A DNA stretch of 57,374 nucleotides, counting the filler, from Jimgerdemannia flammicorona (Eukaryota), in assembly GCA_003990765.1 (NCBI GenBank). It is 3 parts of 3 records of this genome, joined end to end, with 100 filler letters (N's around TTAATTAATTAA, not from the genome) between each part and the next. Parts side by side here need not be neighbours in the genome. Positions count along the whole stretch, not along the records: positions 38,321 to 57,374 come from RBNJ01002040.1; 2 more parts are not named here. One strand, 5' to 3'. Position 1 is the stretch's first letter, and the number at the start of each line of letters is the position of its first letter. The notes under the pieces are model-generated. The model searched no databases. It was not told where the DNA came from and saw only the letters and a list, made by a program, of their open reading frames with translations. The position numbers and the translations under genes are program-made. Positions 13,901 to 57,374 of the stretch are shown here, one piece after another.

Positions 13901-14100
13901 CAGAAATTAGATATAAGACTCTAAAACTTAAGAGATATAAGTCAGTCAGTTAAAGCTGCTACAGAAAATTATTACAAAACTCAAGATACAAGACCACAGA
14001 AATTGGATATAAGATTACAAAACTCAAGATATAAGTCAGTCAGTTAAAAAATTACTACAGAAATCAGAAACAAGATTAGAAAATACTACTATAGTCAGAT
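13880..14100. repeat. Degenerate short tandem repeats (~21-bp core such as aaactcaagatataag / cagaaattagatataag)
   Basis: Repeated gatataag-containing units; gtcagtcagttaaa occurs twice (13940, 14036). Confidence 0.55.
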
Positions 14101-14710
14101 AAAACTATCAGGAAACTCAGTTTAGGATACCAGAATAACTACCAATATACCAGAAAACTCAAGAATAACATATAATATAAATAATCACCCTTTTGATATA
14201 AATGGCCAGTTATATAACTAATGACTCAAGATATATAAATTCTAACTTGATATGAATGAGAACAAATTAAACAGCAGATAAAGTAAATATTAAGTCAGAA
14301 GTATTATTGGAAAACAAATAGGATATAGTATAGACAATTCAGTAGTATATTGAGCCATATATATCAGCAAACCAGATATACAAATCATATAGAACATTTT
14401 GAGGGCTCAATCAGGAAATTTTTCTAAAGACTTGACTATTTAACTTAAGAGCCCAACAGTTATCTATAGTGGATAATTTAGGTGAAGCTAGCCAGCAGTA
14501 AAGTCAGAACTAATATCAGCCCACTTTTGAAAAAGAAGCCTATACTATTGTCAAGATAATTCTCACTCTGTTCAGAACCAGTAGTCAAGAAACTAAGTTA
14601 GAAGAAAGATTATAATTTATCAGGCACCTTTCTCCTATATAATTCATGTTACACCAACTTCAAGCAATGGTTTTTCGACATAACTTAGAGAAAAGGTATT
14701 ATAATAATAT

Positions 14711-17700
14711 CATCAAGCAAGAGTTCTGATGGGTGTGCTGGGTCAGGTGGACCTGGGGCTTTTGGCTGGCAGAATGTGGAGAGGGGTTATGGCCTGGAGA
14801 TGGGGGCCTTTGGAGGGTCGAAGGGTGCCAAGGGCTCTGGAGGTAGACTGGTGTCTGGTAGTCATATGGAGAGGCCTGGCCCCCCAAGCTTTGCAGATAA
14901 GGTGAAGGAGAGTGGGTGGCCAGCTGGATCTAGAGCTGGTGCTGCTGTAGGGAAGGGCAAGGCAAGCCTAGAGAGGGGGAGAGGTACTCAGGTTGGGGAT
15001 GCAAGCATAGGTGCTGGAGGTGCTATGGCTGGGGATGGGACTGCTGATGGAAGTGTGATGGGGAATCAGAAAAAAAAAAGAGATGTAACAGCTGATGGCG
15101 GAGTGGGGCAGGGGTTCTCAATGTGAAAGGGGAATCTGGCCGATGGTGTAATGGAGCTGGTGATTGCACTGTTACTCAGAAAATTGATCTCAGAGTTTGT
15201 AGTGACACTGTGCTTCTGAGGCTTAGCAGTGACAATGAGGATGGTCTTGGGGCTTATCTCGAAGCAGGTGGCTGGGGCCACATTGGTGAAGTTCCTGAAG
15301 GGTCTGGAGGGGGTTGAGGTGGGCTTTGAGAAGGCAGGCCCCCTGGAAGAGGCTCTGAAGACTGGAGTGGCTGTTGGGGAGGTAGTAGTCCCCATGGTGC
15401 ATTGTCTGAGGTGGGACCCCAGGGTGGTACAGCTGCTAGTGAAGGGGGTACCTATGGTGATGAAAGAGGAGACTAGGAGGAGGGTAGAGGAGGTGATAAT
15501 GGAGTATGGCAATGTGGTGGATGTCAGTTTCTAGGTATGGGAGAGGACCTCTATCAGGACAGATGATATAGATGTAAGGATTAGACTGGCTGAAAGAGAG
15601 GCCACAGGGAAGATGAGTGACTGGCCCTCAGTGTTGATGTGGGGGGCTTTTGTCTGTAAGGTGTCAAGGGTGAGAGAGAGTGAAGAGGAGGAAGAGAACT
15701 TTTTAGAGGCTTTGAAGAAGTTGAGTGGTGCTGTTGAGAGGAGGGTAAAGGCTTGGAAACTGTATGAGGAGTCAACACATCTGGAGATTATTGATAGGAA
15801 GCATATTCATACTGATAAGAGATAGTAGGAGAGGGCTCAAGGGTGCAGGAGGCAGAGGGAGTTATTGGCAAGCATGAAAGATAGGGTTAAGATGATAACT
15901 GGGGGCCTTGCGAAGTCTGGGAGAGTAATGGCAAGTGACTGGGCTAGCTAGAGAGGTAGTGATAGAGAGAAGGGCCTGGAAGGAGCTGAGAAGGCACTAC
16001 CCAAGGACCTGTTTGCTGATGGTACTTTTGAGGTCTGGGACCTGGTTGTTAATGACACTCCCCCTCTGATCAGGAGGGGTCCAGCAGTGAGAAGTTGGGT
16101 GGCAGAGGATGAGCTGATGCAGGGTGCTCAAAAGGTACACTTTGGGGTTCCTGACATGACTAAGGGTAGACAGGTGGTGGTCATTAGTGAGGATGAGCTG
16201 GTGGTTGTCCCCAAGGAGGGATGGGATGAGACTGCTAGTGTAGGGGCTGATACTATGATGCTGGATGCTGGAAGGCCAGGGATACCAGGAGGGAAGGAGG
16301 TGGGGAACCTGCTGTAGATGAGTAAGATAATAGATAACCTTGTAGCTGAGGAGCTGGGGGAGGTGGACCTGCAAGTGATGAGTGAGAAGTACTGGGCAGA
16401 GATTCTGAGGGGAGAGAGAGTGATGGGGGCACTGAAGATGGAGATTCTTGCGATTTTCATAGAGAAGGAGGGCTATGAGATTGATAACGAGTAGGAGGCA
16501 GAGCTTATGGTGGTTGCTGGTGAGAGGGCTGCCTACTGTTGGACTGAGCGACATGGTTTGCAGCTCTGGCAGGAGGTGTGTCTGGAATATCATGAGGACT
16601 TTGAGGAAAAGGAGGATGGGGCAATAGCTGAACTTCTGGAAGGGTTGGAAGTATGGGCAGCTGAGGAGAAGGTGTTGGCTGCTGAACATGACTTGGACTT
16701 GGCACAGGAGGAGTTGAATGCAGATTTGTAGAGGCTGCAATTGATATCTAACATTATTCCTAATGAACAGTACAACTAACATTTTCTCTCAGAACGTGAA
16801 TGGATTACAGGGTACTGGGCAGTGTAAGAACATTTTTACTTAGCTGAAGGGATTGGAGGTGGACCTCTTTTTAATACAGGATATATGGTGTGAGGATGAG
16901 ATAGATCAAGTAGAGTGGACTAGAGAATAGGGAGGAGCTACTGCTTGGAATGGCAAAGTGGCAATTCTGGTAAGGAAGGATAGAGGGGACTTGAGTGGAA
17001 TTCAGAGCTGGGGTGACTGTTTGATCTGAGGAGATTGGCATCAACCTGGGTGGGAATTAGTGAGAGTTGGCTCCTACTACTGTCCTACAGTTAGGAGGGA
17101 GCAGATTGAGTGGATTAGGGATCTGTTAGAGGAGGGTGTCTTCTTGGAAAAAGGTGTCAATGTTCTGGGGAATGACTTTAATATGGTAAGGGATCCACAG
17201 CTGGATCGAACTGATGGAGGGAGGAGTGCAGGTGGAAGAAGTGGTGGACTAGATAAGTGGGAGGAGGTGGAGACCCTTAGCTCCTTAGAAGATATGGGCA
17301 GAATATGGTGGGGTGACAGGAGGGTCTATACATACTGGGTAAATGGACTGGGTATGAGGATTGACTGGATTCTGATGGCCAAATGTTGGGGTATTGATAT
17401 ATGGAGGACTTTGACAGTAGAGTGGTGCCCTTGGTCTGATCACTAGGGGCTATTGGGGCAGGGACAGTTTGGGGGGAGCGGAGATGGACCCAGATATTGG
17501 TACCTTAACTCCTCTCTACTGGCTGAGCAGGGTTTGTGGGACTCATGGATGGCAGATATCTAAGTGAAGATTGCCACCTAGATAAGTGAGGGTGCATCTG
17601 TGGATATCTAGTGAATAAGACTGAAGGAGGCTACAAGGGTTTATTGAGAAGAAGCTAGTAGAGAGGCTGTGAGGCAGAGAAGGAAGTGAGTGAGGTGTGC

Positions 17701-17861
17701 TTCCAACAGGCTGATTAGATTGCAGATAGAGTAGACTGAGTTGCTTTGCTCTAAAGAGGTGGAGGATTGGAGGTTGGAGCAGGTGAAATTGGAGGTAATG
17801 GAGCTATAATATATATTGTGAGCTGAGGAGGAGATATATATAAATGGAATGGCTGCCAGAC
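14711..17861 (+). mobile_element. Decayed L1/Tx1-like LINE: ORF1 plus APE endonuclease of ORF2, cut by an LTR insertion
   Basis: ORF2 from ATG 16763: NIFSQNVNGL..DLFLIQD..NDFNMVRDPQLDR..YTYW..RIDWIL..WSDH..YWYLNSSLL. Upstream ORF1 has in-frame stops. G-rich sense strand, CpG-depleted. Confidence 0.85.
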
Positions 17862-19016
17862 TGTAAGAGGGTTACTTTCTTAGGGAAACCATTACATAGT
17901 TCTGAAAGGGTTTTTCTGGAAATTCTGGATATTCTGGAAGACTGTTTTCTTATGGTCAAGATCAATTTTGTATGAAGTATGTCCTCTACACTTATTGATT
18001 TCAAGTTCAGGTTGACATCTCAACCAAATCCTTTTTCGGACTAGTTCTGGATGTTCAGGATTTTCCATATTTCAGGAAGTTCAAGAAACTAAGACCAGCT
18101 TAGTTGAATTGGCATATTGCTGCAGACAATACCCAATTAGGAAATTTCATGATGTGGTTAGAAGTGAGACCTAACAGGGGGTGGATTTACTTAAGAGTAG
18201 TTGGAGGGTTATTAAATAGGTTTATTCGCTATTCATGCTATTGCTATACTAGGAGTAGTTGTGTGAAGGGATATTGTGGGGAAGTGCTTAGGAGTTGTTG
18301 TGTTCAGATTGTTCAGGTCTGAGATTCTGAGGTCTGGGGGAGGGGATATTTATACTAGTGAGAGGCTATCTGGACTATGCTGAATATGGATGTAGCACTA
18401 AGTGCCTTGCTGAGTTGGAATGCAGTCACATAGTACAAGTATGATCTGACATGTAAAGAGATCGTCTGACTGCTGAGTCAGTTCACAGTCATGTCATATA
18501 AGGCTAATCTAACTATACTATGACTACTAGACTATTTATAGGTTTAGGCACTGTCTGGGTAGTCTTCGATGATATCACCATCAATTGCATTATCTCTGAT
18601 AAAGTAGTCATCTAGAAAGAGTGGTGCGCAGATTACTTCTCCTTGTTCACTAAGGTAATAATACATTGGAACTTCATCTCCATCCCACAAGATTGCATCA
18701 TCAGTCTCGTATGCAGGGTAAGGTGTTGGTGGGTGAAAGAGGGGTGCATCATCTTTACTTTTATTGGTTTTGCTATCTGCATATCTTCTATAGGTTACAG
18801 CACTATGAGTCGCGGGGTTGTAGTAAGCTGATAGCTGTGATTCATGTCACTCATACTCAGGTGGTAGAGTGGTTGGTTCAATCTTGAGGGTTGTCTAGAG
18901 GTATAGATTGTGTTCTCTAGTCTCTTCATTGTAGTTGAAGTAATCATGGGTGAATGTGGGTTGGTATTCGTGCCAGTGGTCATTGTCCCAATAAGTCTCA
19001 TATGCTGTTATGAATT

Positions 19017-19061: not shown

Positions 19062-19161
19062 NNNNNNNNNNNNNNNNNNNNNNNNNNNNNNNNNNNNNNN
19101 NNNNNTTAATTAATTAANNNNNNNNNNNNNNNNNNNNNNNNNNNNNNNNNNNNNNNNNNNN
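19062..19161. other. Artificial contig linker (44 N + TTAATTAATTAA + 44 N)
   Basis: Six-frame-stop spacer flanked by homopolymer contig ends; identical to 38221-38320. Confidence 0.97.
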
Positions 19162-38220: not shown

Positions 38221-38320
38221 NNNNNNNNNNNNNNNNNNNNNNNNNNNNNNNNNNNNNNNNNNNNTTAATTAATTAANNNNNNNNNNNNNNNNNNNNNNNN
38301 NNNNNNNNNNNNNNNNNNNN
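38221..38320. other. Artificial contig linker (44 N + TTAATTAATTAA + 44 N)
   Basis: Same spacer as 19062-19161. Confidence 0.97.
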
Positions 38321-39252
38321 AAAAAAAAAAAAAAAAAAAAAAAAAACTTGAAGTCCCGTTTCACACCGTTCGCCCGTATTGCATAAATTTATTTATTTTA
38401 ATGGAACACATTATAGTACTAAGACCTTCAGAACGGGGCTACTATCATTTGTAAAAATCTGTATCATCGGGTATATTTTTTTAACAAAAACTTTTCTTCG
38501 GCAGTTGCATCTGGCGAGATGGGAGGCGTCTGTCATAACCTTTGTAGATGGCGGCATGTCAGGGGCAATGATGTCGAGCATATCAATTCTCCTGCATGTT
38601 GATGTAACATTTGCTACCACAGGTCGCAGAAACGGGCACCAGACGATCGCTATAAATTCAGGGAGAATATATTTATCATGAAGTGACCGATTGACAGGTC
38701 TTAGAAGTGCTTCGGTTCGTTGTAAGCACGGTTGGAACAATTCTCGTTTGTTTCTGCAGGGTCGTCAATGGGTGGCTGCAGATGCTTTGGATAGTATGCA
38801 ATGACTCGTAAGTAAATTTCTAATTTACGATGCCCCTTTACTCTGCGATCGACTTGGCTCCTTTTCTCCATAACTCCTTGTATTAAATTATGATGAGCAC
38901 ATGCCAAAACAGTTCTGAAAATAATACTCACTCTATTTGAAAATGATGTATCCCAACAACTTAAAAGTTCCATTTCAACTTTTTTCAATGCTACCCCGTA
39001 CCGTCATTCTGGTCCCTTCCTATCTTCCCAATTCACCATCCAAACTCCTGATAGTAACATTACTATCTCAGAAAGCATTGCCGTCGTACATGTTAGGAAG
39101 CCATCGCCATTTGACCTTACCGCGCTCTATAGCCCATTTTGCTATGTCTGTTGGAACGGAGCCAATCATTTTCTCCTTCAGCTGGGTGGTTGGGAAGACT
39201 CGCGACTTGAGGGAAGCTATTATGCCAGCCACACCGAGTATGCCTCCAACGA

Positions 39253-39434
39253 CGGCTGGCGCCTAACATTCTACCCGGCGGCTGGCGCCTAACATTCTAC
39301 CCGGCGGCTGGCGCCTAACATTCTACCCGGTGGCTGGCGCCTAACATTCTACCCGGCGGCTGGCGCCTAACATTCTACCCGGCGGCTGGCGCCTAACATT
39401 CTACCCGGCGGCTGGCGCCTAACATTCTACCCGG
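39253..39434. repeat. Minisatellite: 7 x 26 bp cggctggcgcctaacattctacccgg
   Basis: Seven head-to-tail copies, one C->T variant at 39331, no spacers. Confidence 0.97.
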
Positions 39435-39526
39435 CAAGTCAATAGTGCACTCCAGCGTCTCCTTTTCTTCCTAATTAAAACAATTAGTTTTGGCATTCTC
39501 ATGTTTATATCGCCCTACAGCGCGGA

Positions 39527-41594: not shown

Positions 41595-42624
41595 AGGACA
41601 TAGTGAGAGAGAGGCAATAGTGATGAGTTATCTCTTTATTAGTTTCAGATTGGTGCTTTCTCTACTTTTTTGTAGTTTCTGATATCTTTGGCTATATTTA
41701 GAGTATATTCATTTTAGTGTGGCCTCTTTTTCCTTTTACTGTCATTAATAAGATATCATCTTGAGTATTGGCTAACCTTAGATATCAAGTACCAGTATAG
41801 ATTATCTGCAGATTCTTAATATCTGTAGTAGAGCTCTCTGGGCTTTGGTAAGTTTTCTAGTGAGTGTAGTACTGATATAGGTGACTGTTTTTTAGGTGAG
41901 GTTAGAATGAGAGAGGAGATGGCTATTACAGATAAGAGAAAGAGTGATTATAATAAACTAGTAGAGTGCCAAGCTAAGGACAGTTATCAGAACTGAGACA
42001 GGTGCTGCATTGGTGAGACCTTCTAATTAGTGAAGGGTGGTTAGATGATAGATATCCCTCTTAGCTACTTTTGATAATATATAAAGTTGAGCTCCAGTTA
42101 TTAGAGGTAGTCAGAGGGCCTGAGGCTACTTGAATCAGATGTCTTAACTACACTCAACTGAAACTGAGAGCTGATATAGTAATATGATCAAGCCTCACAG
42201 ACTTGAGTAGTAGAGTATTGGAGATCTTTTCTTATCTTATATATAAGTTCTCTACTTACCTCATTAGAGAGAACCAGGTTCTACTCACTATTCTGTACTT
42301 TGAGGAAGGAGAGTTTTTCTTTATCTATTACTCTTCTTAAGATAGCAAAGTTATACAAATTGGCTTAGATATGGTCTTATATATATATTGGGGTTTTGGG
42401 TGTATACCTTTGATATATAGTTATTACTCTCTAGTAGTAAAAAGAGTATAGTGTATAGAATGAGGTATAGGTAACTTTACCCTACTGTACCTAGTATAGT
42501 TGAGCTACTGGATAATAGCTAGTCTAGGTTTAATAGAGATATAGTACTCATTAAATAATAAAAGAGAGTTTTGACCTATATAGTCTAGGTTCTTTTCCAA
42601 TAAAAATCTATAGGACATTGAGTC

Positions 42625-42665
<41 letters not shown>

Positions 42666-42671
42666 AATAAA

Positions 42672-42702
<31 letters not shown>
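41595..42702 (+). mobile_element. 5'-truncated LINE 3' end with poly(A) and ~11-bp TSD
   Basis: AATAAA at ~42599; poly(A) 42629-42702; TSD taagtataaaa at 41584-41594 and 42704-42714; homologous to 11312-12470. Confidence 0.85.
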
Positions 42703-43376: not shown

Positions 43377-44929
43377 TATAATAGTGACCCCAGAATGATG
43401 ACATCAGTACAGGAGACAGTCTTTTCTTGCAAGTTACCAGATCAGAGCACATAAAGATCATATGGTATATGAGATAAGCAATGATGACCAACTGTGAGTC
43501 ATTGTGACCACAGTTGAGTATCTTGAGGAATATAAAAGAAGAATTAAGGAACTACAGTAGCAGCAACCAAAAAGACCCACCAATCTCAAAATAGCTCAAA
43601 AACTTACCATAAACAAAATACCTACTGCTTGCCAAATCTCAAGGTCAAGGAACCACCAAGGTATCTCAGTTGAAGAAAAGATGTTCTAAGACATCAGAAG
43701 AGCCATGAGAACCTGCTCAAGAAGAACTTCTAGTATTAACCTGGGTACTGGTGACCCTTATCATTATATTCTCTACTGCTGTGAAATGGAAACAAGGATC
43801 ACCATTACTACCGAATACCTCCAAATGTGGCAGAAGTATGAAATAGGAAATATTCTCTACTAGGAGTTCCTACAGACCAGCACTCAAGAGCTATAAGATA
43901 CCACTCCTATGAATATATGTGAAACAAGAACAGCTAAGAAGATCCATCAGATCTTCAGGCATGCATCATAGTTGATTCCTAACTTGGAGTATATTAGAGT
44001 CTCAGATTTCAGAGACCTGTTATCCCGCTGTATCAATATACTAGAAGCCAGGGTGGCCACAGAAGCCTAGTCTACTATCACTCTTGATAGTGATGAAGTA
44101 GAAGACTTCTGGCATCTTATTCTCCAGGATAACTCAGATCAATTCCTACAAGGATTGAGCTCAGTATTCCAAGGCCCAAGCATCCAAGTTAGACCTCCCC
44201 AAGACCTCATATTTGTTCCCTATTTTGTAGAAGAGAACCTCATAGACTAGAGAGCTTCAGATCTCCTTGTTCCTGCCACCACTGCTGCCAAATGTGATGA
44301 CATCATCAGTGATGACATCATCCTGCACAACATATATGAAGCATGTAAAATATGTGAAACACATGACCTATGCAATAATGATAATGAGACAGATGAGATA
44401 TTCACAGACCTCATCTCCTTTGAAGACATCCTGACCTCTGATGAGGATGAAGTCTCTATGGTCTTGAACATTCTGCTCTAAGTCCCTTGGTTATACTGAA
44501 TAATGCCAGTACTGATATTCTGATATAACATTGAATAATGCCAGCATTGGTATTCTGAACCTATACAACCATTAGTACTAACTCTGGAACTTAGCAGTTT
44601 TTCCTGTCCTAGCATTTTATTTTAGTTATTGGAATTTATGTATATTTAGCTTTATATCTTAGCAATTATTGAATTATATTTTATATAAATACCCCTTTTA
44701 TTTTCTCTGAAATAAACTCAGTCTATTTAGTTCCAGTTCACTTATACACAATCTCTTGCAAGCAATCTAAGAGATAACAAGACAGTTAAAGATAAGAAGT
44801 TTGAGGACTATAAGATCTTAAAAAGGTACTCCAATAAGAACTTGCTTATAACAAACTTGAGTTAGTCTAAAAGATACACCTTGAAGAGAATCTGGCATAT
44901 TTGAAGGACTCAACAACCACTACATGACA
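43377..44929 (+). repeat. 5' LTR of element 1 (1553 bp)
   Basis: Colinear with 50625-52162, differing mostly by transitions. Confidence 0.93.
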
Positions 44930-47139
44930 ACTTAGTGCCCATTGGCTGGTGATTTAAGATGAATCCCTCACTCTTAAGCTGAAAAATGAACAACTCCCAC
45001 AACAACTACCCTATCTACAAGAGTCACCCCTATAAGAATTCAAGATAAGATAAAAATGCATCCCCCCATATTCTATGGATATACTACTGAAGAATCAATC
45101 CTGACCTTTATTGAAGACTTTGAATAATTCACTGCTATATGAGCCCTTAGTGTGAATGCAAAATTGGTCCTTCTATCAGTCAGCCTTAGAGGATCTACTA
45201 GAGATAAGTTTAATGCAGCCACTATTGCTAATAATAGTGCAGCCAAACTTGCCAACATGAAGGCCTTCCTTAGAACAACATACTATACTGAAGAGATCAA
45301 GCAAGCTCTCAAGGATCAACTCAATATTATCTGCCAGAGACTTAGTGAAGATTTCAACTTATTCTATATCTGAATCTGCTACCAGATTGTCTTGGCTGGC
45401 TATGATGATGCCCTCAAGGAACAAATAGCAGATTCAACCTTCCTCAAAAGAGTTCACTCTGAAATTACTCTAGCAATCTGGTCTATCTCAGCTGCACTGA
45501 CCCTTGATCAGAAAGTGGTCTTTACACAGAGATATTAGACTGCCAGACACCCTGCTGAGCACTCAATGGAGAAAATAACTGGTATCAAGATAGAGCCATC
45601 AAAGCCAACTAGTATCATATCTGCCATAGTTGTAAACAGACAACCATTTCCACCTACCCCCAAGACAGCCAAAGCTGACCCAGTGGAGAAACTCACTAAG
45701 TAGTTTACTGAGATGACTACATACCTTGGTGATGTTTTTAGAGAAGTCCAAAGTACCAACAGGAGACCAGTGCAGAGATTTGCAGCTGCTATAGAAGAAT
45801 ATAATATCACATGCTTCAGATGTGGAGAAGAAGGCCACTATGTAAAGAATTGTATGACCAAAACAAGATATAAAGCCAAACTAAGCAATGCTAGCAGATC
45901 TAGAGAATAAACCAATACAGTAGTCATCGAGGAGATTGGTGATACTAATGATGAAGAATACTATAAGGAGCTTAAATTCTACTCTGCTACTGAAGGTACC
46001 AGAACTCAGTCCAAGCCCTATGATAAGAAGAGCAACAGCAAGCCAGTTGGAAGACTAAAAAAGACCCCAGCTATTACTATTCAAAGCAAGACTCAACCTA
46101 AGGAGATTGATCAAGACATGGAGTTAGATGAAGCTACCTGCCAAATTATTGAAGGCACTACTCCAGTCTCAGGAGAAAGTAAAAGCAAGAAGAAACAGAA
46201 GCTGTACAAGACCAAGATCCACTAGTATAATATCTACAAGGACCTCAAGGAACAGAAGATCAATGCTACTTTTGGACAGCTAGTCAAAGTCCCTACCTTC
46301 AGATAGCAGTTGAGAGTAGAACTTATAACTACTACTAAGAATCAAGAGTACAAGATTGTAGAAGCTCACAATGTACAGGAAGAATCTGAAAACTCAGGTA
46401 AAGAATTCAAAGACCAGCACAAGACATCAGCCTATACTCCATGTCAGATTGAAGACTGTAGCTTTAATGCTATCATTGATACCAGTGCTGGAGGATACCT
46501 CATGAGCAAGAAGGCAATTGACTGCCTAGGCTGAGATATTGAAGAGTCCACCAAGATAGTCTATGTTACAGCAGATAGTATATGAGCTACCCCCCTTGGC
46601 AAAATCTGAGAAGTCTCCATCAAGATAGAAGGAGCTACCATCCTAGTAGATGTGATTGTTATAAGTTCCACCAACTATGACATTCTCATTGGCAACCAAT
46701 GGCTTCATAAGGCCAAGGCTATCATTGACCTCAATGTCCAGAAGATGTAGATCAACTATAGAGGAAAAAAGGTATGAGTCTCTATCAATGTCCACAAAGG
46801 AGTTCTACCAGACATAGAGGAAGGAGATGAAGAGAATACAGAGGTCTTCATGCACTCAGTGAACAAGAACAAGAACAAGATACCCAAGCTCACAGATGAG
46901 CAGTAGTACAATAAGATCATCAATAGCTATACCTCTCAAGGAAGATGCCCCTATAGTACTAGGATGTACTACTCTGAACACCTGAATGACTGCTGGTCCT
47001 ATATCAGTAAAGTCAGGAAAATCCACCAATAGAAACACAAGCAAGAAGCCACTGAAGCAAAAAGGAAAGCTGAAGAAGATGACCAGCCCTCTGAGCTTCA
47101 GACTGACAGTGATAATGAACAGAAACAAGAATCAGACAT

Positions 47140-47556
47140 CACCCTCAAGGTCAAGAATTTTCACCCCAAAGCTAAGATCCCAGAATATAAGACTGAAGGA
47201 GCTATAGAAATGAACCTTGTCAGCATTCAAGATGCTACCCTTGAACCACAGACCACCACCCTACTTGGCACTGGAATTGGAGTTAAGTTGCCAGAAAACC
47301 ATACCAGAATTATCAAGACCAGGAGCAGTCTGGCCAAAAGCGAAATCTCAGTTAAAGGAGGAGTAATTGACCCTAATTCCACTGGCAAGATCTTCCTCAT
47401 AGTCAGGAATCACAACCCCACCACCCCATTCAAAGTCAAGAAGCATAACAGAATTGGCCAGATACTGATCTATGAAATCAAGAAACCCAAGATCACTGAA
47501 GCCATTAAACTCATCAAAACTAAGAGAGAAGAATAAGGTTTTGGATTCACTGGAAG
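47140..47556 (+). pseudogene. dut: dUTPase domain between protease and RT in element 1
   Basis: GTGIGVKLP..KTRSSLAK..VKGGVIDP..GKI..RIGQILI..R..GFGFTG. Confidence 0.9.
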
Positions 47557-49064
47557 AGGAGCCTATGCTACCATCAAGATTACCAAACTTGAGTACAAGA
47601 AAGATAAGGACCAGAATAAGTACATATGTACTATTGGAGAAAACTTTTCCCTGGAAGAACAACTTCTCAAGATCCTATACCAGAATGAAGGAGTACTTGC
47701 TACAGACTTCAGGGATATCCACAATCAAGAACCCAAGTACTACCATGAAGTTGACACTAGCAATACCAAGTCTATCTACTAGAAAGCCAGACCCATACCA
47801 CCTGCCTACAGAGAATGGCTGCAAGTGGAACTCAAGGAAATGGAAGAAGCTAGAATCATCAAGCAAGCTATCAGTCTCTGGGCTTTACCCATTGTTCTTG
47901 CCCTAAAGAAAGGAAGCAAGCCTGGAGAGTTTGCACTAAGACTCTGTATTGACTACAGGAAGCTCAATGCTATCACCAAGAAGGATAAACAGTCCTTGCC
48001 AAATATTCAAGAAATCCTTACTACTCTTGGAAGTGAAGCCAAATACTACACCACCCTGGATCTGTTCTCAGGCTTCCATCAGATTGGTCTCACTCAAGAT
48101 GCCAGTGAGAAATCAGCCTTCATCACACCTGATGCTACCTATATCTATCTACAAATGCTATTTAGAATGTGCAATGCCCCAGCAAGTTTCCAGCAAATGA
48201 TGAATAGAGTCTTTAGCAATGAGATTGGAAAATGGCTCTTTGTCTATGTTGATAATATGATAATCTTCAGCAACACTATACAGGAATATGTCAATCACAT
48301 ACAACTAGCTCTCAAGAAGCTCAAGGAGCATGGCCTTTACATCAAGCCTAAGAAATGCAAGTTTACAGCTCAAGAAATCACCTATCTAGGACACATCAAC
48401 CAGACTGGAATCCACACAGACCCCATAAAGATTGAGGCTATTGCAGCCTACCTGAGACCCAGAACAACCACAGAAGTCCATGCCTTTCTTGGACTGGCCA
48501 GCTATTACAGAAGATTCATCAAAGGATACTCCAACATTGCAGTATCTATCTACAAGCTACTGAAGAAGGAAACCAAATTTGAATGGACCAAGGAATATCA
48601 AGAAATCTTCAATGAACTCAAGACCAGGTTGACCCAAGCATCTATCCTCAGAAGACCAGATTGGAACCTAGAATTTATCCTGCAGACAGATGTGAGTACT
48701 ATAGAACTTAGAGCAGTCCTAGCTCAGAAGAAAGATGGACATGAATATATCATCTCCTATACAAGCTGAGGTACTCATAAAGTAGAACAGAACTATGAGT
48801 TATATAAGCTCAAATACTTAGCAGTAGTTTGGGCAGTAGACAAGTTCCACTACTACCTAGCCAGGAAACACTTCACTATTCAAACAGACTATTCTGCTCT
48901 TGCCTGGCTATTCCACACTCTGAACCCCAAAGGAATATATACCAGATAGATCTACAGACTGCAAGAGTATGACTGTACTGTCAAGCACCACTCAGGAAGA
49001 ACCAACACCAATTCTGATGCACTCTCAAGGACACTTCAAAACACCCCCATCAAGACTATTCAAC

Positions 49065-50260
49065 ATGAATAAGGAGTTATACTATGAATTAATTAGCTAT
49101 CTTAGGTAGCAGAAGATGCCCAACCACCTCGAACCCTAGACAATCACCATCATCAACTGGACTTGGAAACAGTTTGAACTAGACAACACTACACTCAGAA
49201 AAGGAGAAAAGCTAGTAATACCCAAACATAAGAAGTATCAAGTAATGAAAGAAGTACATGAGCAAGGATACTTAGGAGGAATCAATATATATGATAAGGC
49301 AAGAAGAATCATATGGTGGTCCAAGATGGAAGAAAACCTGTGCCAATTTATCAAAGAGTGTGACAAGTGCCAAAACAGAGACAAGATCAACAAGACCAGG
49401 CATCTAAGTCATCAAGAATTGAGTCTATCCCCTTCCACCACATCACAATAGATATCATTGGGCCACTACTAGTAACACTATCAGAAAACTGCTATATTAT
49501 AGTTATTGTAGACCTTTTTACCAAATGGATAGAAGCAGGAGCATTACAAGAAGCCAATGTCCTCTCTATAGCTGACTTCCTGTACTGAGAAATCATCTGC
49601 CACTATAAGACACCAAAGCAAATTACAACAGACCATGGTACAGAATTTATCAATAGATTCTATAAGATAATGTATCAGAAATATAAGATCCAGTATATCA
49701 AGACCACCACATATCACTCTTAAGGAAATGGACAGATAGAGAGAACCAACAAAACCCTCAAGAACATCCTAGTGAAGACCTCAGAGATATATGAGAATTG
49801 GGATAACTATCTCCCAACTGTCCTCTCTATCCTACAAGATATATAATCACAGAGCATATACTTTACCCCAAGAGAACTGCTCTTCAGAGAAAAAGGTTCT
49901 GATGGAACCTCAGCTACAAATCTAAACCTAACTTGGAGATAGGTCCATATATAAATTTAGAGACTATACCAAATCAGGAAGAAAGCTGAAGATTATATTA
50001 TCAAGTTACAAGCACTAACAAGAAAGAATGCAGAAAAGAATCACAAGACCCTAGAACTCATCCAAATTGGAGAAAAGGTCCTACTGTATCGAAATATGAT
50101 AGAAGTCTCATGATCATGAAAACTGGAGCCCAAATAGGAAGGATCCTTCTATGTGCAAGATATCAAAGGAACTATCTTCTGGCTTAGAAAAATCTCAGAG
50201 ACCATACTACCTACTACAGTATATAGGAACAGACTCAAGAAGTACCACAAACCTATATAA
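49065..50260 (+). pseudogene. Integrase of element 1 (decayed), in a different frame from RT-RH
   Basis: Zinc-binding region EVHEQG..ECDKCQ, core IDIIGPL..VDLFTKWIEA..TDHGTEF..GQIERTNKTLK, C-terminal G(S)F..HRNRLK-like; no chromodomain seen. Confidence 0.88.
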
Positions 50261-50322
50261 GAGAAGTAAAACATAATAACCACCCATGAGGTTCTAGTCT
50301 GTGAATTGTAACAGTATGTCCT

Positions 50323-51729
50323 ATGACCAGCAGGCTATCTGTCTGGACCATTCTCTAAGAGATACAACACTAGCAACTACTTATCTATGAGACTTTTGAA
50401 GCCAGAGGAGTTTGAACCATCAACTGATTGATCAAGATCAGAATCAGGTCCTTGCTCTATATGAAGGGAGTAACTCTTCACCATTATACCAAAATACAAA
50501 TAGAAGATACCAGTCCATAAACACCACTTTTTGACCCCTTACCAGAGGTTATGAGATCAGCAAATTTTTCAGAACTGGACCAATAAATAAGAATGCTCAA
50601 GAAGATCCTTATTTAGGAGGAAGATATAACAGTGACCCCAGAATGATAACATCAGCACAGGAGACAGTCATTCCTTATAAGCCACCAGATCAGAGTATAC
50701 AAAGATCATATGACATATAAGATGAGCAATAATGACCAACTGTGAGTTATTGTGACCACAGTTGAGTATCTTGAGGAATATAAAAGAAGAATCAAGGAAC
50801 TGCAGTAGCAGCAACCAACAAGACCCACCAATCTCAAAATAGCTCAAAGACTTACTACAAACAAAATACCTGTTGCTTACCAAACCTCAAGGTCAAGGAA
50901 CCATCAAGGCATCTCAGTTGAAGAAAGGATATTCCAAGACATCAGAAGAGCCATGAGGACCCACTCAAGAAGGACTCCTAGTGTCAACCTGAGTACTAGT
51001 GACTCTTATGATTATATCCTCTACCACCATAAAATGGAAACAAGAATCATAATTGCTACCAAATGTCTCCAAATGTAGCAGGAGTACAAAATAGAAAACC
51101 TCCTCTGCTGGGAGTTCCTACAGGCCAGCACTCAAGAGCTACAAGATGCCACTCTCATAGATATATGCAAAACAAGGACAGCTAAGAAGATCCATCAGAT
51201 CTTCAGATATGTATCATAGTCAATCCCTAACTTGGAGTATGTTAGAGTCTCAGATTTCAGAGACCTGTCATCCCACCATATCAATACACTAGAAGCCAGG
51301 GTAGCCACAGAAGCCTAGTCCACTATCACCCTTGATAGTGATGAAGTAGAAGACTTCTGGCATCCCATTCTCCAGAACAACCCAGATCAATTTCTGCAAG
51401 GATTGATCTCAGTATTCTAAGGCCCAAGCATCCAGATTACATCTTCCCAAGATCCCACATTTATTCCCTATTTTGTAGAAGAGAACCTCAAAGACTGGAG
51501 AGCTCTAGATCTCCTTATTCCTGCTACTGCTGCCACTGAATATGATGATGTCATCAGCAATAATGTCATCCTATATGATATATATAAAGTATATGAAGTA
51601 CATAAAATATGTGACCTATGCAATAATGATGACAAGACAGATGAGACATTCATGGACCTTATCTCCTTCAAAGACATCCTGACCTCTGATGAGAATGAAG
51701 CCCCTATAGTCTTGAACATTCTGCTCTAA
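50323..51729 (+). pseudogene. ORF3 of element 1: ~468-codon frame crossing the PPT into U3 of the 3' LTR; unknown function
   Basis: Single frame with no net indel. Internal stops are compatible with C->T/G->A decay and some are sense codons in the 5' LTR. Ends ..VLNILL*. Confidence 0.7.
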
Positions 51730-52162
51730 GTCTCTTGGTTACACTAAATAATGCCAGCACTGGTATTCTGATGTAATACTGAATAATGCCAGCATCCTGA
51801 ACCTGTACAACTATCAGTGCTGACTCTGGAACTTAGCAATTTTTCCTGTTCTGGCATTTTATTTTAATTATTGGAATTTATATTTAGCTTTATATCTTAG
51901 TAATGAATTATATTTTGTATAAATATCTCTCTTATTTTTTCTGAAATAAACTCAGTCCATTTAGTTCTAGTTCACTTACACACAATTCCTTACAAGCAAT
52001 CTAGAGATAACAAGATAGTTAAAAATAAGAAGTTTAAGGACTATAAGACCTTGGAAAGGTACTCTAATAAGAACTTGCTTATAACAAACTTGAGTTTGTC
52101 TAAGAGATATACCTTGAAGAGAATCTGGCATATTTGAAGGACTCAGTGATCACTACATGACA
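50625..52162 (+). repeat. 3' LTR of element 1 (1538 bp)
   Basis: Direct repeat of 43377-44929, preceded by PPT. Confidence 0.93.
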
Positions 52163-52192
52163 ATATATACTATATATAGTATAACTATATAT

Positions 52193-52937
52193 TATCATAT
52201 AGTGGACACTAAGTTCTCCAAGTATATCAGATTTTCTTCAAGGTATATCTCTTTGACCAACTATAAGTTTCTTATAAGTAAGTTCTATTGGAGTACCTTT
52301 CCAAGATCTTATAGTTCTCAAACTTCTTATCTTTAAACTGTTCTGTTATCTCTTAGATTTGTTTACTTGAAATTGAGTAGAGGACTAGAACTTCTATACT
52401 CTTGAGTGATTGAGTGTTTTGAATACTTAACTACTTAATTACTGACTTTATTTCAAAAGAAATGAGAGGGGTATTTATATAAAATATAATTCAATAGTTG
52501 CTAAGTTATAAAACTAAATATAAATTCCAATAACTAAATAAATGAGATTCTTGAATATAGAAAACTTCAGTTATAAGTATAAATTTGAGTATCTGTACAA
52601 TTGGTTATATAAGATCAGAATGCTGGAATAATTTCTGACAGTTATGTAAGATCAGAATACTAGAAGAATTTCAACAGTTATACAAAAAAACTCAGAACAG
52701 AATGTTCAGAACTCTGGAGACTTCATCTTTATTACTATCATCAAGGCTAAAGGTTAGAGATAGGATGTCTTCAAAGAAAATGAGGTTAGCAAATATTTCA
52801 TCCATTTTACACATATTATGTATTTCATATATTTCATATATATTGTCAATTAGCAAGATGGTGTCATTACTGATGACATCATTATGGATGACATCATCAT
52901 ATTCAGTGGTAGCAGAGAGAGCAAGGAGATCAGAGAC
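52193..52937 (-). mobile_element. Inverted partial LTR of an element-1 relative, cut by insertion of element 2
   Basis: Reverse complement matches 44250-44929 (FEDIL..DEVSRVLNILF*, terminus actatatgata). Confidence 0.85.
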
Positions 52938-55900
52938 TGTAAGCACACAACCTCCAAGCCACCAAAATTGCATGACATCCTCAGAACTAATTTGGAAACT
53001 ACATGTGAGACTACAAAACAAGAGATCATCTGGTTACACAAAATATACCAGCAAGCATGGGACCCACCACCAAGATACAAGAATACTAGAAGAAGTACTA
53101 CAACTATAAGACAACTCTGAACCGCTATAACTAGTTTGGTATACTGTACTATTACAAAAAGAAACCAAAAGTACCAAACTCAAATTAAGACAAGAAGAAC
53201 CCTATCTCATCTACCAAAAGGTTCACAAACTGCACTTATCAACTCAAGACCAAGATATACTGCAACTATATAAGACCTCATTACTTAGCAGAAGTAAAAT
53301 GCATTTGAACAACTCTGTTTGCTCTATCTGTGTCACCTCCATTGGAGAGTGATGGATGCTTCATCTGAACTCAAGAAAACTGACATCATCAAAACCAATC
53401 TCAAGCCATCCATGTGACAGATATTACTACTAGAAATTGCCTCGAATTACAGAAAATATCATTTCCAAGAGGTTTGAACCCCCAGCCATGACATTGGGAG
53501 CCCTCACCCTAGACAAGAATGGCCAGTCCTCACAAATGCACTAGTAGACCAAAAAAAAAGAGAACCAAGACCTATTATCCTTGTACAACCACCACCACCA
53601 AGAACAGCCTTAATCTTGCAAGAGATAGAAGTGATGACACCTTAAAACTAATAATATCAGAAGTCAGAAAACTACTCAGACTTTACCAGCAATGATGTCA
53701 TCAATAGTGATGTCATCAAAGACTACCCAGACAGTGCCTAAACCTATAAATAGCCTAGCAGTCATAGTATAGTTAGATTAGCCTTATATGATGTAACTGT
53801 AAACTGACTCAGCAGTCAGACAATCTCTTGATATGTCAGATCACACTTGTACTACATGACTGCATTCTGACTTAGTAAGGTACTTAGTGCTACATCCATA
53901 TCTAGCATAGTCCAGATAGCCCCTTACTAGTATAAATACCCCCTCTCCCAGACCTCAGAATCTCAGACTCAAATACACAAGAATATTCCCAAACACTTCC
54001 CCATAATATCTCTTCACACAACTACTACTAGCATAGAAATATCATGAATAGCAAATAAACCTATTTAATAACCCACAAACCACCCTTAAGTAAATCTGCT
54101 CTCTGTTAGGTCCCAATCCTAACCCCATTATGAAATTTCCTAATTGGGTATTGTCTGCAGTGATATGCCAATTCAACTAAGCTGGTCTTAGTTTCTTGAA
54201 CTTCCTGAAATACAGAAAATCCTGAACATCCAGAACTAGTCTGAAAAAGGACTTTGGTTGAGACATTAACCCAATCTTGAAATCAATAAGTGTAGAGGAC
54301 ATACTCTATATAAAATTGATCTTGACCATAAGAAAATAGTCTTCCAGAATATCCAGAACTCTCAGAAAACCCTCCCAGAACTATGTAACAGTTATCCTAA
54401 AAAGCAACCCTCTTACAACTTGATAGTAGCAGTTTACAATCCAATTCTGCTTCAAGACACTTCCTCACCCTGCTATAAACCCTTCTGAGAATTCCTACAA
54501 GTTGGTATAAAGCCCAACCTCTGAACTGGAATTTATCCTAAACCATCTGACAATCTGGAGAGAATTGAACCTGATGTACAAGGACAATTTGACCTCCACA
54601 CTTGCAATAAGTGGGACAAACTTCATTCAAAGAAAGAAGTACTCCAGTTAAACCAGCAAATAGGTGAAACTCTATTTACTGAACTCCTTACACTACACCC
54701 AGCAAGTCAAGATGAAGAAGGTCTTATTGAAGCCTTCTTTACTCTTCTCAATAAGAGTTTTATCAGCTCCACAAATCTGAGTGACCTAGGACAACCAGCA
54801 GCAGTCTTCCTAGCCTTAGTTCCTCATGAAGCCCAAGCCTCTGTAGCCAAGTGGCTCAACTCTACTGACTTTCACCATACCAGGACCAAGACTGCACTAT
54901 ACCACCAATTCCAGAACAGCAAGGTCTACCATATTCTTAAAGAAGAAGCAAGAGAAACTCTTCATCAACTACCTGACCCCAAATCTGAAGCAGGCCCTGC
55001 TACAGCCCTACCTGAATCTGAAACCAATACCAAACCTGAACTTGACTTTGAATTAAGTCTATCCGAAATCAGATATATAACTGATTCTGTCTACTTTGAT
55101 GCTGAGCAAACCCAATTACATGGGGACCAAACCAAAGAAGAGGAGGAGTATCTCAGTGAATTCGATCCTGGATACACTACTGAAGGAGACGCACTTCCAT
55201 CAGGACAGAATACACCTACACAGCAACAAACAGCTATCTATCAAGCCCTTACTCCAGATCTACAACTACTACTCCAGCAACTTAAACAGACCCAAAGAAC
55301 CCCACCACACTCTGTACTAGTATCTCAAGTAGTATCAGTAACACCACTACCAGCAGTCCAACTGCCTCCAGTAAACAACATGGCAAACCAACAGATTCTA
55401 GACCTCACAGCCCAGGTAGCCATAATGGTAGCAACCATTACTGCCTTAGCGGAACAGACCCAACCTACCAAAAATCTGAGCCTACCTACCTTCAATGGTA
55501 CTGCACAAGAAGTCCAAAGCATCATTAGTGTAGTTGACACCAACTTCGAAGCCAATTAATGGACTAATGAGCAAGTTGCTGACCACATTCTGACAAACAA
55601 TCAAGACTACACTCTGGAACAACTCTTTGCTACCACTACAGCCTATGTCCACCAAGTTGTTACATTCTTCCAAGGACCTACCAAAGAGTGGTGGCAAACC
55701 CTTCCTGAAAAACCCCTCACATGGGATACCTGATCTGCAGTAGTTGCTCAGAATGCAGCAAACAATGTCCCAGAATATAGAGCCCACCCTACAGCTCCTG
55801 GACTCAAACAACTCATGATTGCTCAATACTGCAGCAAAACCATGATTGCCAAATCTTGAGTAAAACTCCACAACCTCAAATTTGATGTACATGGCAAAGA

Positions 55901-57374
55901 AGAATTTGAAACCTTCTATACAAAACTCGAGTCACTCCTGAACACTGTTGGCCTAGGATACATTGCCAATAATGAAGCATGAAATGGTATAAGAGCAGAC
56001 CATTTATTCGATACACTGCCAGAATGGCTTACTAGAAAAATCCAAGAACAAGGCCACCCAGTTGGTTGTGATCACCAACAATGGTGCCTGGCAAGAATCA
56101 AGACTATGATCAAGCAAATCCTAACAGCTGGACCAATTCTGCCCTGAAGACAATTCAACAACAAGGAAAAGACTTGGACCAAGAAAGAAGAACCCAAGCA
56201 TGAAGCATCCCAAGCTCCCTCCACATCCACCTCTTGGACACTCAGAAATCATGAACTCACCCAACCAAGTACCTTCAAGAAACTCACTGAAGGCGAAAGG
56301 AATGAACTTTGAAGAAGTGGAGCATGCTTCTATTGCCGAAAGACAGGACAAATGGCCAGTGCCTGCCCTAACCAAAAACCCCAAACAGCAATATGAGTAA
56401 CTGTTACCACTCTGCACCACCTCAACAACCTGACCACCAGAACACTAGACTTTGTCAAGTTAAGACAAACTGCTAAGACCCCAATCAAAGGAAGTCAAAA
56501 AGCAGCTGGATATGACCTATATGCAGCTGAAGAAGCTACAGTTTCCAACTGAGAAGTCAAACAAGTCTACACAAGAATCAGCATCCAAATCTCTGAAGGA
56601 CATATTGGAAGAATATGCTATTGCAGCAGCCTAGTATTTAAAGAACTCTCAGTAGAAGGAGGAGTTATCGATAAAGATTACACAGGCGAAATCATTGTCC
56701 TCATTCGAAACCACAGTTGGACACTCTTCAAGATCTCTATAGGTTTCTGCATTGCCCAGATTCTATTTGAAAAAATCGAGTCAACCCTGACAGTCAAGGA
56801 AGTCCCTGAACTACTGCCCACCATCTGAGGATCCAAAGGATTTGGCTCATCGAACAAGGCCCCAGCCCAACCTACCATGAGCAAAGAAGAACAATTCTAC
56901 AAGAAGATCAAAGACAGATATATACCAAGTGGCCAATGCCCTCATGGCATTGAAATGTACTCTTCCCAAATGATTGATGATTGCTTCTCTTGTGTCAATG
57001 AACTAGCTCAAAGAAGAACCAATAGAAGGAAAGCTCCTACAACTGAAATCACCACCATTGGATCAGACAAACTGCTCACACTTAAGGCTTTTGTCAACCG
57101 AGCACCTGTCAAGATTATGATAGACAGTGATGTCTCAGGCAACTTCATCAGTAAAGAAACAGCCAACAGACTTAAGGTCTTCACCTCTCCAGTACAGCAA
57201 ACTCAAGCAGTTGCTACAGCTGATGGAACCTCACATGTTATTAGCAAAGAAGTATGCAATCTACCCTTCTGAATTGGTGACTACTGAGTACATGTTACTC
57301 TCCAAATCATACCACTTCCTGACAATGAAATCATCCTTGGGACTCTATGGTTAAAACAAGAGAACCCCATGATC
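52938..57374 (+). mobile_element. Decayed Ty3/gypsy-like element 2 (5' part): LTR 52938-54417, long gag frame, zinc knuckle, dUTPase, CHCC module, protease
   Basis: LTR termini TGTAAG..CTTACA. PBS-like tgatagtagcag (decayed TGGTAGC.., iMet-type). CFYCRKTGQMASAC knuckle; protease VKIMIDSDVSGNFIS..EIILGTLWL. Confidence 0.88.
56448..56852 (+). pseudogene. dut: dUTPase domain between gag and protease in element 2
   Basis: GSQKAAGYDLYAAE..HIGRI..SSL..VEGGVIDKDYTGEIIVL..IAQILFE..GSKGFGSS. Confidence 0.92.

Follow-up and report, generated by a model that had tools for sequence, protein, structure and literature searches.

Does the 3′ end of an old retrotransposon of Jimgerdemannia flammicorona carry a gene of its own and, if so, where does this gene begin and how might it be expressed? 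The window that we analysed, a stretch of 57,374 nucleotides joined from three records of one genome assembly (GenBank GCA_003990765.1), contains at 43377–52163 an old, inactivated Ty3/gypsy retrotransposon (Metaviridae) with long terminal repeats (LTRs) of 1.54 kb each. A preliminary description of this DNA had proposed an accessory open reading frame (ORF) of ~470 codons with a nef-like layout, which would start at ATG 50323, run through the polypurine tract (PPT) and end at TAA 51729, 1.1 kb inside the U3 (unique 3′) region of the 3′ LTR. Our analysis supports the last 288 codons of this frame, 50866–51729, as a gene; the first 181 codons, 50323–50865, are not coding. The distal ORF, hereafter the LTR ORF, is very probably a genuine accessory gene carried by the family of retrotransposons to which the element belongs. 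It represents an unannotated protein family whose relatives were found only in metagenome-derived sequences. The positions of all features are collected in Table 1.

The frame from ATG 50323 to TAA 51729 is present as proposed, with 15 internal stops in 468 codons, and the two stops that had been cited as decayed codons, at 51076 and 51418, are indeed sense codons in the 5′ LTR. The stops are, however, distributed heterogeneously along the frame. Between 50323 and 50622, a stretch that has no second copy for comparison, the claimed frame contains seven stops in 100 codons, compared with three to eight in the other five frames. Between 50626 and 50808 it contains four stops in 61 codons (one to six in the other five), and all four are common to both LTRs. 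From 50809 to 51729, by contrast, only five stops are found in 307 codons, including the terminal one, versus 13–30 in the other frames; the stops common to both LTRs number three in the claimed frame, again including the terminal one, and 10–25 in the others. The LTR ORF therefore holds just two premature stops that are shared by both LTRs, whereas the other frames have 8–25 shared stops. Only the distal part of the frame stands out from chance and, because the stop density is low only there, we assign the coding signal to the distal 288 codons.

To identify relatives, the distal part of the ORF was used as a query with X at the stops. The first database search yielded four predicted proteins of 174–271 residues (E values of 5e-50 to 6e-101; 57–70% identity), a profile search of 1.84 billion representatives gave five matches, and a search of a larger collection with the family profile gave 12. 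In total, 13 distinct proteins, all from JGI or ENA contigs, and one metagenome contig, denoted L001, were obtained. None of the 13 proteins is named or has a Pfam domain, and the family has no name in any of the libraries searched. Residues 1–271 of the relative P0006 align in one frame with 50866–51726 (61.9%, E 1.6e-105) and likewise with 43618–44478 in the 5′ LTR (62.5%, E 4.8e-102). As the alignment covers this 271-residue protein completely and without a change of frame, we place the gene at 50866–51729, wholly within the LTR and starting 241 nt downstream of the LTR 5′ end.

The relatives fall into three groups with 23–54% identity between groups and open frames of 271–342 codons. Start, motif blocks and C-terminus are common to all three groups; an MPxxR start at the position equivalent to 50866 is seen in six sequences, with every group represented. 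L001 (1535 nt), which was found by a metagenome scan using P0011, contains an open ORF of 291 codons. There is one stop in this frame versus 6–22 in the other five, the probability of its being open by chance is ~8e-7, and 43% of the third codon positions are C. A metagenome scan using the family alignment gave no match, and a scan of viral contigs revealed no family member. A single 15-residue match in a bacterial metagenome-assembled genome (L002), from a scan of genome contigs, was regarded as chance.

The two copies in the element are decayed members of this family. All of their premature stops are at positions at which the relatives have a sense codon, and they show His, Cys or Tyr at sites that are Arg in the relatives, as CpG decay predicts. 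Between the two LTR copies, the three codon positions have accumulated similar numbers of differences (34/28/29, p = 0.71), which is what neutral decay since the insertion would produce. In contrast, the differences from a divergent copy at 12798–13097 are uneven (47/26/54, p = 0.007); this 300-nt alignment is gapless, and the amino-acid identity is 45% in the ORF frame versus 26–30% in the other two. The preliminary description had named stops or frameshifts retained in a consensus, or a lack of codon-position bias between subfamilies, as grounds for giving up the gene. For 50866–51729 we found open relatives and a codon-position bias, whereas 50323–50865 failed this test. Sequence of the family is abundant in four soil-metagenome DNA runs, which at 80% likeness contributed 5870, 1091, 58 and 18 pieces; the differences from the window are mostly A>G and T>C.

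These data bear directly on whether there is a gene at all. A frame that stands open in a long LTR by chance or as a relic, with database proteins that are gene-caller artefacts on repeat contigs, would account for relatives that are without exception automatic predictions on short contigs, with no name, Pfam domain or expression data. We nevertheless consider this explanation very improbable: the chance estimate for L001 alone speaks against it, as do long open frames with a common start, common motif blocks and a common C-terminus in three groups of such low mutual identity, and both the codon-position bias and the third-position composition agree with coding.

The position of the start codon decides against the nef-like layout. 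In human and simian immunodeficiency viruses, the accessory gene nef lies at the 3′ end and overlaps U3; its start precedes both the PPT and U3, and its translation depends on spliced RNA. The LTR ORF, by contrast, begins within the LTR, and its frame is non-coding where it crosses the PPT. Reading through the stops does give a single frame from 50323 to 51729, but 11 stops lie in the first 162 codons, a density like that of the other frames, and both LTRs share all four stops between 50626 and 50808. The MPxxR start of the six relatives lies at the equivalent of 50866, and in L001 an in-frame stop is found 17 codons upstream of the ATG. The DNA upstream of the L001 ORF is collinear with that of the window (z = 4.6), and the gaps in this alignment are not multiples of three. 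Among 8000 candidates we found no longer fused form, which is weak evidence in the same direction. Taken together, a ~470-codon ORF entering U3 through the PPT is highly unlikely. An alternative placement of the L001 ORF before a PPT, suggested by a purine run and TG after its stop, was rejected (alignment z = −0.3 versus shuffles). A 28-nt motif of L001 (170–197), which belongs to the part of the contig homologous to the LTR 5′ end, recurs with 86% identity at 1481–1508, 230 nt past the ORF stop; the repeated motif may represent LTR borders or an assembly loop.

Homology to the ORF recurs elsewhere in the window, as had been noted before: tblastn found it at 11178–11309 and 12798–13097 and, inverted, at 52695–52928. 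The first two matches belong to a divergent LTR copy on another piece of the window (copy 3), in which ORF remnants at 11181–11309 and 12798–13220 retain 45–48% amino-acid identity, ungapped over 100 codons. Copy 3 is interrupted by ~1.16 kb of inserted DNA (11309–12470). Part of this insert (11312–11956) is an inverted 75% match to 42007–42644, ~0.7 kb upstream of the 5′ LTR; the repeat is unclassified and adjoins long poly(A) tracts (42620–42700). The third match lies in an inverted partial LTR of a related subfamily, which contains the C-terminal 70 codons of the ORF (52695–52928; tblastn identity of 42% across 85 columns, all in one frame, whole-codon gaps being inherent to the method). 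The end of the 3′ LTR and this inverted partial LTR form an imperfect palindrome of 685 nt (51858–52542, 73%) with an AT-repeat centre at 52163–52201. The ORF is thus present on a divergent LTR copy that has no homologue of the element's pol nearby and on an LTR fragment, in agreement with the earlier suggestion that it is also spread by solo LTRs.

We next turn to the signals that flank the ORF. Each of the four DNA copies contains the putative TATA box TATAAAAG exactly once, at −87 relative to the start codon in both LTRs, at −66 in copy 3 (11115) and at −80 in L001, whose 1535 nt have no other TATAAA. Around the start codon, a 28-nt block is the sole significant DNA match between the window and L001, the remainder being beyond the reach of blastn. 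Downstream of the ORF, a second TATA motif, TATAAATA, is followed after 27 nt by the only AATAAA of the LTR. This pair is found at 44684/44711 in the 5′ LTR and is kept in copy 3, and with the U3/R border placed from these motifs the ORF lies upstream of it.

This arrangement suggests how the gene may be expressed. The gene would reside wholly in U3, upstream of the downstream TATA box and the poly(A) signal of the LTR; it would be driven by its own promoter, TATAAAAG, 66–87 nt before the start codon, and would use the LTR poly(A) signal to yield an mRNA of ~1.15 kb. The second TATA box, at AATAAA, would mark the start of the genomic RNA, with a short R and with the poly(A) signal read only at the 3′ end. 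The LTR would accordingly constitute a self-contained gene cassette that is doubled with each insertion and could be expressed from solo LTRs. Judged by the conserved motifs, an ORF in U3 with a promoter of its own is the somewhat favoured arrangement.

Two other modes of expression have to be weighed against it. In the first, which is the main alternative, the ORF would be translated from a spliced sub-genomic RNA that starts at the main promoter of the 5′ LTR and whose leader is spliced to an acceptor just before the start codon, and TATAAAAG would be enhancer-like or a chance match. On the genomic RNA the ORF is the frame nearest the 3′ end, as env, nef and sag are on theirs; the 28-nt block, which reaches the start codon, could be the acceptor region, and the CERV protein of Cer1 is described as made from spliced RNA (PMC10309623). 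Yet the distance of TATAAAAG from the start is similar in all four copies, although their flanks can otherwise no longer be recognised as related, and no pyrimidine tract precedes the start in either L001 or the window, so that we regard splicing as rather unlikely. In the second, the upstream TATAAAAG would be the main promoter, R would exceed 1 kb and the ORF would come before gag as the first frame on the genomic RNA. A conserved TATA box near the LTR 5′ end and the presence of the ORF in the 5′ LTR would fit such a long R. The pair of TATAAATA and a sole AATAAA 27 nt later, seen in both LTRs and copy 3, is instead the usual arrangement of a short-R promoter, and an upstream ORF of 288 codons would impede translation of gag; a long R is thus improbable.

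The protein itself has no membrane segment. The maximum 19-residue hydropathy is 0.6–1.1 in the five members examined, and none of the five has a hydrophobic stretch of the kind expected for a signal peptide or a transmembrane segment; the earlier statement that the protein is not env-like is borne out. All five have a net charge of −20 to −28; the N-terminus is mildly basic, and the last third of the protein is strongly acidic. The conserved core comprises ~120 residues. The conserved blocks are WxEYEI, AKKIHQxFRHxPW, LExxVAxE, WNPxLQDNPDQ, FxGPPI and PQDP..IPY, and the acidic tail that follows them, although variable in length, keeps DLIxF and LNF motifs. The tail peptide quoted in the preliminary description is a mixture of residues from both LTR copies. 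In run X1, at 80% likeness, the contig depth over the acidic tail (regions 44284–44604 and 51346–51987) was 25.7 versus ~450–900 nearby, which fits the many in-frame length differences of the tail among the relatives.

Acidic transcription activators have a similar look, with bulky hydrophobic residues in an acidic tail that follows a conserved core. No DNA-binding domain was recognisable by Pfam or by the PDB sequence profile. In a Pfam search of 12 members at E ≤ 10, only a weak match to ATG5_HBR (E 0.088) was seen, in two of the 12. Similarity to the element's own gag was rejected (hhalign probability of 0.1%). The highest-scoring Atlas lead for P0018, a Closter_coat cluster (score 0.89) with which it shares 130 features, was not taken as evidence. 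We tentatively suggest a soluble product that acts in trans, most likely in regulating the element's transcription or silencing. Equally tentative is the fuller scheme, in which the LTR would be a complete cassette with an early promoter, a 290-codon ORF and a shared poly(A) signal; the genomic promoter would be nested in the 3′ untranslated region of the ORF, and the product would be a trans-acting activator or anti-silencing switch for that promoter.

The layout of an LTR-borne extra gene is otherwise known mainly from mouse mammary tumour virus (MMTV). Sag of this virus is a membrane glycoprotein and anchored in the membrane, whereas the LTR ORF protein is acidic and has no membrane segment. 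Among known systems the MMTV LTR ORF (sag/naf) is nevertheless closer in layout than nef, as an analogy of design and not as a homologue: no homology to Sag was detectable, and the LTR ORF members matched no Pfam family. The U3 region of MMTV is described as containing an ORF for Sag and Naf that is driven by a second LTR promoter, and the virus also encodes a dUTPase (PMC9412291). Its second promoter is known, whereas that of the LTR ORF is deduced from motifs; moreover, MMTV is a betaretrovirus of the mouse and the element here a Ty3/gypsy retrotransposon without env.

The tas (bel1) gene of foamy viruses may be comparable to the LTR ORF in build and in mode of expression. It is presented in PMC3798896 as a 3′ accessory gene with its own TATA-box promoter, whose product combines a DNA-binding part with an acidic activation domain and feeds back first on this promoter and later on the LTR. 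In foamy viruses, however, the internal promoter lies in env and the gene is not doubled with the LTR, whereas here both the promoter candidate and the gene are in the LTR; no sequence similarity was found between Tas and the LTR ORF protein. By analogy, our guess would be a role comparable to that of foamy-virus Tas or MMTV Naf.

Extra ORFs are known from other LTR retrotransposons as well. Additional ORFs (aORFs), such as the env-like ones of Athila and Bagy2, the antisense ones of Grande, RIRE2 and Retand, and brtn of Boty, are described as conserved in most copies of a family and element-restricted, with no known function (PMC7264820; bioRxiv 10.1101/2021.04.13.439636). According to these accounts they are internal, most of them lying between pol and the 3′ LTR; the LTR ORF is instead within the LTR and is therefore present twice per element and once per solo LTR. 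CERV of the Caenorhabditis elegans element Cer1 provides a case of a novel regulatory protein beyond gag and pol in a Ty3/gypsy-type element; it differs in being made from a spliced mRNA and, as reported, acts in nuclear export of genomic RNA (PMC10309623). Fungal Ty3/gypsy elements such as PosPlaTy3-5 of Postia placenta have a dUTPase between protease and reverse transcriptase (PMC2864245), a position that they share, as far as that description goes, with the element here. A figure legend in the same paper lists an 'add. ORF' of unknown function in some fungal elements, its position not being stated there.

Considered as a whole, an LTR-borne gene with a U3 layout, its own promoter and a trans-acting product is the best explanation of these observations, and we rate it as probable. 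Several points weigh against it. Both promoters are matches to a TATA motif, and the U3/R boundary and the transcript are likewise motif-based. Element sequence made up small shares of the four soil-metagenome DNA runs and appeared in no RNA run. The contigs of the relatives are short (567–4848 nt) and their proteins automatic predictions; as only open copies get called as proteins, the relatives give no share of intact copies. Intact DNA is represented by one sequence, L001, whose LTR borders are not placed. With regard to the product, the N-terminal basic patch differs between the groups and is not conserved, Pfam gave no match for the window frame or the relatives, and the PDB sequence profile had zero matches at E ≤ 10. 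The Atlas leads for P0006 were not used, the best having a score of 0.83 and the Atlas's own model a pLDDT (predicted local distance difference test) value of 0.35.

Extra genes of LTR retrotransposons are usually internal, whereas a gene in the LTR is copied twice per insertion and survives as a solo LTR. If the ORF has its own promoter, its expression would be independent of genomic RNA, and a large dispersed pool of a trans-acting factor would result. The MMTV-type design of a gene in U3 combined with a second LTR promoter would then have originated independently outside the retroviruses. Should the fuller cassette scheme also be true, each solo LTR would stay a working source of the factor for the whole family, and a Ty3/gypsy element of a soil eukaryote would independently have arrived at an early/late circuit with two promoters, like those of foamy viruses or MMTV. 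Because LTRs are masked as non-coding in annotation pipelines, such genes are missed in a systematic manner. Phrase searches for ORFs in retrotransposon LTRs, made in the full text of open-access papers and not extended to subscription journals, Repbase or the supplement of PMC2864245, returned only a review of MMTV; this is weak evidence that the layout is absent from print for LTR retrotransposons.

Table 1. Positions of the LTR ORF, its host retrotransposon and related copies, counted along the whole window.
Feature	Position	Strand	Remarks
LTR ORF, 288 codons including stop, decayed	50866–51729	+	ATA at start position; 4 premature stops
LTR ORF, second copy, decayed	43618–44481	+	ATA at start position; 6 premature stops
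N-terminal 181 codons of the earlier proposal, not coding	50323–50865	+	11 stops, chance density
Conserved start-codon block	50846–50872	+	89% identical to L001 355–382
Upstream TATA box TATAAAAG (P1), 5′ LTR	43531–43538	+	only one in LTR; −87 to start-equivalent codon
Upstream TATA box TATAAAAG (P1), 3′ LTR	50779–50786	+	candidate ORF promoter; −87
Downstream TATAAATA (P2) and sole LTR AATAAA (51945)	51918–51950	+	candidate genomic promoter and poly(A) signal
5′ LTR	43377–44930	+	aligned to 50625–52163, 86% over 1557 columns
gag with CCHC zinc knuckle (45806–45856), decayed	45056–46090	+	Pfam zf-CCHC E 1.1e-05
Aspartic protease	46439–46708	+	Pfam gag-asp_proteas E 1.3e-07, RVP_2 E 1.5e-07
dUTPase domain between protease and reverse transcriptase	47168–47554	+	Pfam PF00692 E 2.6e-19
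Reverse transcriptase and RNase H	47933–48970	+	Pfam RVT_1 E 1.3e-26, RT_RNaseH_2 E 2.4e-27, RT_RNaseH E 5.5e-25
Integrase (H2C2 zinc-binding, rve core, C-terminal tail)	49218–50267	+	Integrase_H2C2 E 5.2e-12, rve E 2.1e-09
PPT-like run AGGAGGAAGA	50615–50624	+	last base adjoins 3′ LTR start, 50625
3′ LTR	50625–52163	+	direct-repeat partner of 43377–44930
Inverted partial LTR, related subfamily, tail to tail with 3′ LTR	52192–52930	−	67% to 44297–44930
Divergent LTR copy (copy 3), another piece of window	11091–13629	+	60–67% nucleotide identity, four blocks

The internal region of the element contains, as judged by Pfam matches, gag, protease, dUTPase, reverse transcriptase, RNase H and integrase in this order, the dUTPase being inserted between protease and reverse transcriptase. 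Every gene is interrupted by stops. Translation of 45053–46423 in the gag frame gives eight stops, six of which are inside the annotated gag, and the integrase shows a single frame change between its H2C2 and rve domains; no integrase chromodomain was found by Pfam at E ≤ 0.01. No primer-binding site complementary to a tRNA is recognisable after 44930, and the window contains no tRNA genes. The element is flanked by AT repeats, so the target-site duplication is unreadable. Transitions account for 187 of the 197 substitutions between the LTRs. Repeat-induced point mutation (RIP) was dropped as the cause of decay: because CpG has nearly gone (observed/expected of 0.04 and 0) and TpA is not enriched, we prefer deamination at methylated CpG to classical RIP.

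The host genes of the window are eukaryotic and encode macro, WWE, Sel1, actin-related, COX15, BTB, RFX and UCH domains. Together with the dUTPase in the gypsy element and the restriction of the family to soil-metagenome runs, this set of genes would fit a soil fungus. Artificial linkers (44 N, TTAATTAATTAA, 44 N) at 19062–19161 and 38221–38320 separate the three pieces, and the element lies in the third. The apparent 'perfect inverted repeats' I4–I21 are these linkers and were discarded; adjacency across the linkers is not real. Poly-T and poly-G runs are present at piece ends.

Downstream of the element, a second, different Ty3/gypsy element occupies 54340–57374 and is cut off by the end of the window. 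A long open stretch (frame of 52902) precedes its CCHC gag, and its dUTPase at 56472–56918, 33% identical to that of the first element, lies upstream of the protease. Because the second dUTPase precedes the protease, the position of this domain differs between two elements of one genome. The segments 53680–54372 and 17909–18605, on different pieces, form an inverted repeat pair (87–90% alike) and are probably the LTR of the second element family; tblastn found no homologue of the LTR ORF in them. A region of strong GC skew (+0.37 to +0.46) at 14001–18000 has long, low-complexity open frames on the minus strand, and seven tandem copies of a 26-nt GC-rich unit are found at 39224–39460, just upstream of a BTB-domain gene.

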